This document shows, one piece after another, positions 26,326 to 27,234 of a DNA stretch of 64,000 bases (positions within the stretch are counted from its first letter, which is position 1; the number at the start of each line of letters is the position of its first letter). The position numbers and the translations under genes are program-made. Under the pieces are notes generated by a model that did no database searches, was not told the origin of the DNA, and worked only from the letters and a program-made list of their open reading frames with translations. This stretch comes from a virus (taxonomy: Duplodnaviria > Heunggongvirae > Uroviricota > Caudoviricetes): the IMG/VR virus record IMGVR_UViG_2851938318_000001. The stretch is one strand, 5' to 3'.

Positions 26326-27234
26326 ATGATTGGTAAGTTGTCTGATTCTTTGATTGAAAATAAATACAACGAATTTAGAGAAGAAATATCTTTACTTTTT
26401 GACTATTTAAATCAGATAAATGATACAACAAAGAAAAATATAAAACGTCTTCTTAAAGAAGTGGAGTATGCACAGAATCCAGATACTATTATTAATATTA
26501 ATGAAACTATTAAGATTAAGTGTGGCACAACGTTAGCTCGCCATTTATGTTCAAACCCATATACAGGTTCAACATTAGAGATAGGTAACAGCGCCATTGA
26601 TTTAGAAGAAAAGATAAGATTGTGTAATACTTTGAAAAATAAACAATATCAGTGGGTTATTACTGAAGCCTATGAGTTACTGGAAGACTATATTGAGGCA
26701 ATATATGTCTATACTGTATGTGTTCGAAATGATTTATGGTCCTCAAGTGATTTTGGTAAGGTTGAAGATGATGAAATTGGGAAAAGGGAAGTTTATTACA
26801 GATTATTAAAAGCAAAAAGTAACCCATCGAAAAAAATAACTAAAATTTTCAGAAATAAAATACCTGGCTTCAAAGAGATAGAAACAAACAACAAGATTGG
26901 CAAAAACTATCGCTTTAACATCAAGCTAATTGAACTACTAAGACATACAATAGTACACAATAGTGGACGATTCAATGATACAGAAAAATTTATAAATAAG
27001 GTTTTAGATGAATCTGAAATAAACGGTAAGAAAAGAGTTATTGGAGAAAGAGCTGTTAGAAGTTACATTACTAAAGTGCAAGAAGATGATATTGTGATGC
27101 TCTTAGAAAGACCATCTGAAATTTTAGGTTCTTTTGGTGGGTATTTTAACAGAGCAAAATTTTTACTAAGTGATATTTTAGAATACTCACTAATCATTAA
27201 AGAAGAACTAAAATCATATCTAGGCAATCATTAA
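26326..27234 (+). CDS. AT-rich hypothetical protein (302 aa) with HEPN-like R-x4-H motif; candidate abortive-infection/defense gene
   Basis: Markedly lower GC than flanking DNA; Lys/Asn/Ile-rich protein; RHTIVH motif; opposite strand to neighbours; own terminator; next to tRNA cluster. Confidence 0.5.
   Translation: MIGKLSDSLIENKYNEFREEISLLFDYLNQINDTTKKNIKRLLKEVEYAQNPDTIININETIKIKCGTTLARHLCSNPYTGSTLEIGNSAIDLEEKIRLCNTLKNKQYQWVITEAYELLEDYIEAIYVYTVCVRNDLWSSSDFGKVEDDEIGKREVYYRLLKAKSNPSKKITKIFRNKIPGFKEIETNNKIGKNYRFNIKLIELLRHTIVHNSGRFNDTEKFINKVLDESEINGKKRVIGERAVRSYITKVQEDDIVMLLERPSEILGSFGGYFNRAKFLLSDILEYSLIIKEELKSYLGNH

Follow-up and report, generated by a model that had tools for sequence, protein, structure and literature searches.

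A low-GC, stand-alone HEPN-like gene carried as a swappable cassette by an SSU5-like phage-plasmid: a candidate anti-phage protein

What is the function of a single AT-rich gene that is oriented against all its neighbours and placed beside the tRNA genes of a phage? The question is raised by an open reading frame (ORF) of 302 codons, located at positions 26326..27234 of the window, i.e., of the whole 64,000-nt stretch of viral DNA that was analysed here. With Escherichia phage CMS-2020a the DNA region shares 99% identity, and sequence comparison places the window within the SSU5-like phage-plasmid group. In a preliminary description the ORF was regarded as an orphan gene acquired as cargo, with a HEPN-like motif, and as a candidate single-gene defence module. 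The HEPN and single-gene-cargo interpretation proved to be largely right, yet some of the arguments that supported it did not hold. The features on which the analysis is based are as follows:

25907..26152, − strand: glutaredoxin gene (grx), left neighbour of the 302-aa ORF (Pfam E 6e-11)
26156..26325, + strand: leader of the cassette, low in GC, 5′ of the ORF; near 26155 the alignment with phage Cyrano, and with the backbone of the 56% allele, loses identity
26259-26264 and 26282-26287, + strand: weak sigma-70-like promoter candidate, TTGAAG and TACAGT with a 17-nt spacer (8/12 matches)
26316-26320, + strand: Shine-Dalgarno sequence AGAGG, 5 nt 5′ of the ATG
26326..27234, + strand: coding sequence of the expanded, stand-alone HEPN-like protein, 302 aa, ATG start; matches PHROG 35492
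26602..26724, + strand: long helix, residues 93-133, probably HEPN helix 2 (DSSP of the model; 2.42 bits per column)
26674-26676, + strand: invariant E117, within helix 93-133
26941..26958, + strand: RHTIVH (R206-H211), predicted catalytic Rx4H motif, C-terminal end of helix 195-211
27239..27258, called on the − strand by the terminator scan: GC-rich hairpin AAAGGGGCCGAAGCCCCTTT with an A-tract and a T-tract on its sides
27413-27970, − strand: tRNA cluster Ser-UGA, Thr-UGU, Tyr-GUA, Asn-GUU

The composition and setting of the gene are as the preliminary description had them. The GC content of the ORF equals 0.293, compared with a window median of 0.472, and the windowed calculation makes this ORF the lowest-GC stretch of 909 nt within the 64 kb. 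The encoded protein is indeed rich in Lys, Asn and Ile (I 11.3%, L 10.3%, K 10.3%, E 9.9%, N 8.3%). The ORF is situated, as noted before, with the glutaredoxin gene on one side and four tRNA genes on the other, and on the strand opposite to theirs, since every flanking gene and all four tRNAs are encoded on the − strand and the ORF on the + strand. The ORF is convergent with the tRNA operon of the element, and one terminator probably serves both.

The limits of the acquired unit can be drawn by comparison with phage Cyrano, in which the 302-aa gene is missing. In the alignment, identity to Cyrano stops just past the start codon of grx (~26155) and restarts at the A-tract of the hairpin (~27235). 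These two breaks define the unit as a low-GC cassette of 1.08 kb (26156-27234), that is composed, as read from the sequence, of a 170-nt leader and the 302-aa ORF. The promoter of the gene presumably lies inside the leader; a consensus scan with a threshold of 9/12 called no promoter on the + strand, and the sigma-70-like candidate listed above falls one match short. The terminator, initially ascribed to the gene itself, has to be reassigned. The hairpin is identical in the backbone of the 56% allele and in Cyrano, and because the latter has no such gene, it belongs to the backbone. It is the terminator of the tRNA transcript that runs towards the gene, and the cassette ends on its right side at this hairpin, which is probably used in both directions, by the 302-aa gene included. 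No second credible ORF was found in the cassette, and antisense ORFs of 54-61 aa within the gene were taken as AT-rich noise. Tandem repeats were not detected between 25800 and 27600 even at a minimum score of 30, and Rfam identified no family at the cassette besides the tRNAs. A 19-nt pair (16/19 complementary) that joins the cassette ends, and that arises in 0.3% of shuffles, was considered as a set of terminal inverted repeats; it was rejected as a functional feature because it was chosen post hoc and is missing from the 56% and 38% alleles.

Is this gene a part of the phage-plasmid core, or a cargo? The preliminary description argued for acquired accessory cargo and proposed comparison of related phage-plasmids, with conservation in all of them speaking for a core gene. 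Among the 649 PLSDB plasmids in which the backbone ATP-dependent DNA ligase is present, the 302-aa gene was found in 57, that is ~9%, and this scarcity, together with the sharp edges of the cassette, supports the cargo reading. The cassette is present in 18 of 5426 complete E. coli genomes, in all 18 cases on plasmids of ~110 kb and never on the chromosome, and all of these copies are at least 99% identical. In Cyrano the slot is filled by a Phage_gp49_66 gene. Other elements carry diverged alleles, of ~56-57% identity in E. coli, 43% in Citrobacter and 38% in Klebsiella, all located just upstream of the tRNA cluster in unchanged orientation. The element with the 56% E. coli allele shares 96-100% identity with the window in the flanks and ~66% in the cassette DNA, with sharp changes of identity near 26150 and 27240. 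On the aligned sequences, the pattern is read as allelic replacement at a hotspot of recombination that lies between grx and the tRNA genes.

The gene is no orphan, contrary to its first designation. An exhaustive HMMER search with a six-sequence profile retrieved 453 cluster representatives at E≤1e-3 (351 at E≤1e-10), and since these represent clusters at 50% identity, the family comprises at least 453 clusters, distributed across many phyla. Nearly all members have 280-320 aa and match end to end. In genome scans they were found in Gamma-, Beta-, Delta- and Epsilonproteobacteria, Bacteroidota, Treponema, Nitrospira and Marinimicrobia as well as in some viral contigs; most of them are chromosomal, in diverse bacteria. 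A word-indexed search returned the phage-plasmid alleles and one distant match from a metagenome-assembled genome only, and gained few sequences when repeated with the family alignment; exhaustive HMMER and contig scans yielded far more. The family is poorly annotated: the RefSeq name is hypothetical protein, and the sole PHROGs match is PHROG 35492, of function unknown. Neither the 302-aa protein, nor 81 members, nor the family consensus sequences have a significant match in Pfam, NCBIfam or PADLOC, and the system models of PADLOC-DB v2.0.0 assign 0 families to the protein itself and give spurious weak matches only for the 81 members.

Which fold does such a protein adopt? RHTIVH is present at residues 206-211, as first reported, and is the only Rx4-6H of the protein. 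However, Rx4-6H occurs in 48% of composition-matched shuffles and Rx4H in 20%, and so the motif of a single sequence, put forward as HEPN evidence, is at chance level. The part of the motif reading that stands is provided by conservation and by geometry. In alignments of 81 and 86 members (16-59% identity) only four residues are invariant: E117, W138, R206 and H211. Further positions are conserved in at least 90% of members (N105, Q107, W110, Y116, Y127, G131, D142, R176, E186, N189, H207, V210 and G214), and the motif takes the form R[H/N]x[I/V]VH in 86/86 members, with N after R in two. According to the definition of the HEPN superfamily (PMC3710099), Rx4-6H closes helix 3, next to a loop; the residue after the motif R is usually N, D or H; helix 2 contains a conserved acidic residue, often as Ex3[K/R]; and helices 2 and 3 are often separated by an insert. 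Both AlphaFold models fit all four features. Helix 195-211 ends at H211 in DSSP, and in the second model helix 198-215 contains R209..H214. The acidic residue is E117, placed in helix 93-133 inside the conserved block N105-x-Q107-x-x-W110...E114-A-Y-E117-x-x-E120, though the Ex3[K/R] form is missing, as E117 is followed by L-L-E-D (E-x3-D). The insert between the acidic and the motif helices comprises residues 134-194.

The two models are almost wholly helical, with short hairpins only. The preliminary description had counted the failure of structure prediction to give a HEPN-like fold as evidence against its reading; in the models, the core takes the form of an up-down bundle of four helices, on which solved HEPN domains can be superimposed, and the top structural matches include HepT-type toxins of MNT-HEPN pairs (5yep_B, 7ae2_A, 8xdj). 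Foldseek against PDB, a search that had been proposed as a check for HEPN or Abi folds, was less favourable, with no significant match and only generic helical bundles (best E 0.088). The long helices of the protein attract designed bundles in this search. Sequence searches of PDB with profiles of 6 and 81 sequences gave nothing meaningful, and a match to CmlS in the profile search (E 0.008), which covers a short helical stretch, was judged to be due to chance. Curated HEPN profiles of Pfam, NCBIfam and PADLOC likewise produced no significant match, consensus sequences performing no better; matches below threshold were to DUF3644 (E 2.9; best member 0.0065), HEPN_Apea (0.022) and Csx1/Csm6 (0.0033). 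Invariant R206 and H211 and the helix-end geometry of the models thus speak for the HEPN reading, and the motif taken alone, the curated profiles and Foldseek do not. When weighed together, they make membership in the HEPN superfamily, with the corresponding fold, very probable, and the protein is likely to be an active RNase.

Conservation is not evenly distributed along the protein. The helices that bear E117 and the motif contain 2.4-2.6 bits per column and the periphery 1.0-1.9, with the least information (1.0-1.5 bits) in the N-terminal helix, the hairpin and the insert that follows the motif. The same gradient is seen between the two E. coli alleles of the one slot, of which the catalytic helices are 73-85% identical and the periphery 38-57%, the N-terminal helix and the central insert reaching 38-41%. 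Such a pattern is expected if a fixed nuclease core is embedded within fast-evolving recognition or regulatory surfaces.

The neighbourhoods of family members give the functional context. All-vs-all clustering of the genes within ±4 positions at ~40 loci revealed no neighbour family that recurs beyond trivially syntenic relatives, which agrees with the initial view of a single gene without a partner. In 42 of the 43 loci scored the gene is lower in GC than its flanks (e.g., 0.32 vs 0.62, 0.32 vs 0.59 and 0.41 vs 0.65), so the compositional anomaly is a trait of the family, as expected for a horizontally moving gene. Of 135 ORFs that lie within two genes of a family member, at least 12 have strong PADLOC matches, to type IIG and type I restriction-modification (RM) systems, PD-Lambda-1, PD-T7-5, Avs4, AbiEii, mad3 and PDC-S13/S15/S57; further matches, from Pfam, are to ToxN, three integrases, Bro-N and FRG. 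At one locus (L022) the family gene and a type IIG RM gene have 4 nt in common, and at another (L034) the family gene directly adjoins the gene of a MADS-like protein (1887 aa). According to the abstract of a recent review, 1.5% of bacterial genes belong to predicted anti-phage systems, and the share of at least 9% among the flanking ORFs can be set beside this figure for scale only, the loci being unmatched. The link to defence that is drawn from these neighbours is one of guilt by association. The tRNA genes, in turn, lose the meaning that was attached to them: a tRNA was found within ~6 kb in 5 of 38 scanned loci outside phage-plasmids, and adjacency to tRNAs, regarded at first as a telling feature of the gene, is not one.

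When fold, conservation and context are considered together, the balance tips slightly towards an anti-phage role of the 302-aa protein. In the proposed model, a single expanded HEPN domain would make up the whole protein of ~300 aa, its parts following one another as a long N-terminal helix, a β-hairpin, the E117 helix, a helical insert, the R206-x4-H211 helix, a second insert and a C-terminal helix. By analogy to other HEPN proteins, dimerization or oligomerization would bring two Rx4H motifs together into a metal-independent endoribonuclease site. This site would be kept off as long as the lysogen is uninfected, and infection by another phage, through one of its components or consequences, would switch it on; the variable outer parts, i.e., the N-terminal helix, the hairpin and the inserts, could provide the sensing or regulatory surfaces. 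Once active, the enzyme would cut an essential RNA, most likely anticodon loops of tRNAs or mRNA, which would halt translation and abort the infection. The gain would be protection of the host population, and of the resident phage-plasmid, against competitors. Such a trigger-activated HEPN RNase, which acts in abortive infection or superinfection exclusion, is our favoured reading, by a modest preference.

Could the nuclease serve the phage that encodes it? It might act in host takeover or mRNA turnover, process the transcript of the element's own tRNAs, or degrade signalling nucleotides as a counter-defence. For this speak the residence of the gene in a phage genome and its convergence, with a terminator in common, with the tRNA operon; the alternative occupant of the slot, Phage_gp49_66, is a putative cyclic-nucleotide phosphodiesterase in the annotation of one relative, and some HEPN proteins deplete cyclic oligoadenylate signals (DARNA preprint). 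However, most family members are found on chromosomes, outside phages and beside RM or other defence genes, and tRNAs are close to few of the members outside phage-plasmids. In Klebsiella, moreover, the gp49-family gene and an allele of the 302-aa gene occur together. The low frequency of the gene among related phage-plasmids (~9%) implies that it is dispensable for the phage life cycle. A phage-serving RNase is therefore considered unlikely.

An addiction function is of similarly low probability. The protein would then be the toxin of an unrecognised toxin-antitoxin module that kills cells losing the phage-plasmid, and a role in defence would not be required. The element does replicate as a plasmid, HepT-type toxins are among the top structural matches, and a gene of a YafO-family toxin is located 1 kb from the ORF in the same variable region. 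Broken copies of the gene, truncated or frameshifted, are met now and then (P0005, P0006, CP012114.1), as expected of a costly toxin. Yet neither MNT nor any other partner gene recurs beside family members, the family is mostly chromosomal, and in the cassette there is neither a second credible ORF, nor tandem repeats, nor an Rfam RNA of the AbiF/ToxI antitoxin type. A hidden antitoxin was rejected on the same grounds, i.e., no tandem repeats, no Rfam RNA and no conserved neighbour.

There is also a slim chance that the protein is a non-catalytic helical bundle, either a regulator or ligand binder (MtlR/YggD, KNTase-C) or a generic four-helix bundle, in which R206 and H211 would be kept for binding or structure. 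The generic bundles returned by Foldseek would be in line with this, as would the failure of sequence profiles to tie the family to catalytic HEPN families. Non-catalytic HEPN families, however, typically lose the motif that catalytic ones keep (PMC3710099), and the strict invariance of the R, the H and the acidic residue follows the catalytic pattern. Low GC, mobility and defence-type neighbourhoods are also ill suited to a housekeeping regulator.

Another reading pairs the nuclease with the tRNAs of the element, tRNA-Ser, Thr, Tyr and Asn, which would act as cleavage-resistant replacements in a phage competition of the 'toxin plus resistant substrate' type. Upon infection by a competitor, or in the element's own lytic cycle, an anticodon nuclease would deplete particular host tRNAs, and the element would keep translating as rivals and host stall. 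The Thr and Ser tRNAs cut by the HEPN nucleases HepS and ApeA overlap with the tRNA set of the element. The cluster, however, is a part of the backbone and is present in Cyrano without the gene; among the five elements compared, no clear link is seen between tRNA content and the gene; and adjacency is no family trait, tRNA linkage having been rejected as such a property on the basis of the 5/38 loci. The pairing is thus quite improbable. Finally, a DNase toxin of the restriction-endonuclease-like PD-(D/E)xK type, suggested by a faint match to CDI_toxin_EC869_like (E 0.013, 16 bits, consensus positions 108-189), can practically be set aside, as the score is below the cut-off of 27 and the nearly all-helical models do not fit the α/β core of such enzymes.

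How does the trigger-activated HEPN RNase, the favoured reading, compare with known systems? The closest precedent is HepS, a 'HEPN solo' abortive-infection protein of the Salmonella prophage Gifsy-1 (PDB 9oik; PMC13043305), which is prophage-borne and was recognised from the same kind of evidence. HepS has no partner gene, shows no toxicity upon overexpression, is switched on by the tail-tip protein of a siphovirus, and cuts the anticodon loops of tRNA-Thr, Ile and Ser (PMC13043305). It is 218 aa long and its motif occupies residues 100-105, in contrast to 302 aa and residues 206-211 here, and no sequence homology was detected, the PDB search with the family profile missing HepS even at E≤10. 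No hepS-like ORF is present in the LT2 version of Gifsy-1. HepS, ApeA and DARNA are all single-protein HEPN abortive-infection tRNases that differ in their triggers. ApeA (~580 aa) and DARNA (PD-T7-3, 456 aa), both anticodon nucleases, are much larger than the 302-aa protein and contain additional non-HEPN domains; HEPN_Apea matches one of the 81 members, and no member has a convincing PADLOC match.

The minimal HEPN toxins (HepT/MntA pairs and HEPN-T; 5yep_B, 7ae2_A, 1jog, 1ylm, 2hsb, 1ufb) are half the size, and lack the ~50-residue N-terminal helix, the β-hairpin and the two inserts found here. MNT-HEPN pairs include a nucleotidyltransferase antitoxin, whereas none is adjacent in this cassette or recurrent in the loci of the family, and the HEPN and DUF86 models of Pfam gave no match. 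[quoted passage not shown] The only Pfam match of the 302-aa protein is to EC042_2821/DUF3644 (PF12358), over residues 182-223, i.e., the motif helix, and reaches 7.9 bits against a gathering threshold of 27.6; three of the 81 members match this model. DUF3644 is a HEPN family found in RM operons (PMC3710099), and the wHTH, REase and Zn-ribbon fusions that are typical of it are missing from the 302-aa protein. We found no description in the literature of a HEPN gene in SSU5-type phage-plasmids. Since no profile of a named family matches, no MNT partner is present, and size and domain layout are different, the proteins form a new, unnamed family among stand-alone HEPN-type proteins, of a known kind rather than of a new principle.

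Phage-plasmids of the SSU5 type are common in clinical Enterobacteriaceae, and the cargo of their variable slots affects which phages infect the hosts, which bears on phage therapy and on competition between mobile elements. If the proposed role is confirmed, a compact single-gene system would be added to the catalogues of defence, extending the well-known theme of HepS, ApeA, DARNA and the lactococcal Abi proteins. The allelic series of the one slot (100%, ~57%, 43% and 38% identity), in which the core is fixed and the surfaces vary, could be used to map the trigger specificity of these surfaces.

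Between the integrase gene and grx, the glutaredoxin gene, a pair of genes is placed in the window:

24783..25193, minus strand, YafO-family toxin gene (Pfam E 5e-22)
25203..25811, minus strand, unannotated 202-aa gene, just upstream of the toxin gene

The segment that these genes occupy (24783-25811) is itself variable, being missing in the E. coli plasmid L052 and replaced in phage Cyrano by a 184-aa ORF of the plus strand. Since this segment also varies, the entire stretch from the integrase gene to the tRNA genes looks like a multi-slot cargo hotspot. Further evidence of cargo build-up comes from Citrobacter plasmid NZ_CP056836.1 (L003), in which the HEPN-like gene has a TolA-like ORF on its upstream side and, downstream, just past tRNA-Asn, an arsRDAB arsenic-resistance operon (L003 5718-8891). 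In Klebsiella elements the slot additionally carries a gene of PhoH-like ATPase and a Phage_gp49_66 gene (2648-3820 in phage pJN2-26, L002; see also 4359-4709 in L001). The annotation of these elements calls the latter gene a putative cyclic-nucleotide phosphodiesterase, and it might be an anti-signalling counter-defence gene adjoining the candidate defence gene.

The tRNA repertoire differs among the related phage-plasmids as well (the window, L001, L002, L003 and L052 were compared).

tRNA sets of the window and its relatives
Window (27413-27970) and E. coli plasmid L052: Ser, Thr, Tyr, Asn
Phage Cyrano: Ser, Thr, Asn
Klebsiella phage pJN2-26: Ser, Asn
Citrobacter plasmid: Asn only, within the fetched stretch

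The spacer between tRNA-Ser and tRNA-Thr, which is variable among the relatives, has 224 nt in the window (27500-27723) and just 8 nt in Cyrano; over 27550-27700, within this spacer, the identity of L052 to the window falls to 24-50%, the tRNAs themselves being nearly identical. The tRNA genes of phages P7 and D6 are ~93% identical to those of the element, and the region additionally matches N4-like and T4-like phages. Owing to its long variable arm, the element's tRNA-Ser scored marginally below the threshold as tRNA-Sec (46.6 vs 47 bits). At 28571-28673 (minus strand) the betaproteobacterial tmRNA model is weakly matched in its 3′ portion (17.3 bits vs gathering score of 84, E 0.017), which is most likely a chance match or a tRNA-like remnant.

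Inverted repeats were found at two places. The first, positioned between the terminator hairpin and tRNA-Ser, has 20-nt arms (27333-27352 and 27391-27410) that are 95% complementary and enclose a 38-nt loop. It is conserved at 100% in Cyrano and 94-100% in L052; at the 3′ end of the tRNA transcript it could serve for processing or termination, or else it could act as a recombination site. In the low-GC cassette, the 5′ and 3′ ends (26287-26343 and 27180-27234) are linked by short inverted repeats of 19 nt (84% complementarity), 22 nt (82%) and, without mismatch, 10 nt. Of these, the 19-nt pair arises only rarely in shuffles (0.3%), but it was chosen post hoc and lacks conservation in the diverged 56% and 38% alleles of the HEPN-like gene, so this pair is probably not a functional feature.

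Damaged copies of the HEPN-like gene also occur. In plasmid CP012114.1 it is frameshifted, giving three tblastn pieces, and the HEPN-like proteins P0005 and P0006 are cut down to 172-173 aa. These copies suggest that the gene is now and then inactivated, a pattern expected of a costly or toxic gene.
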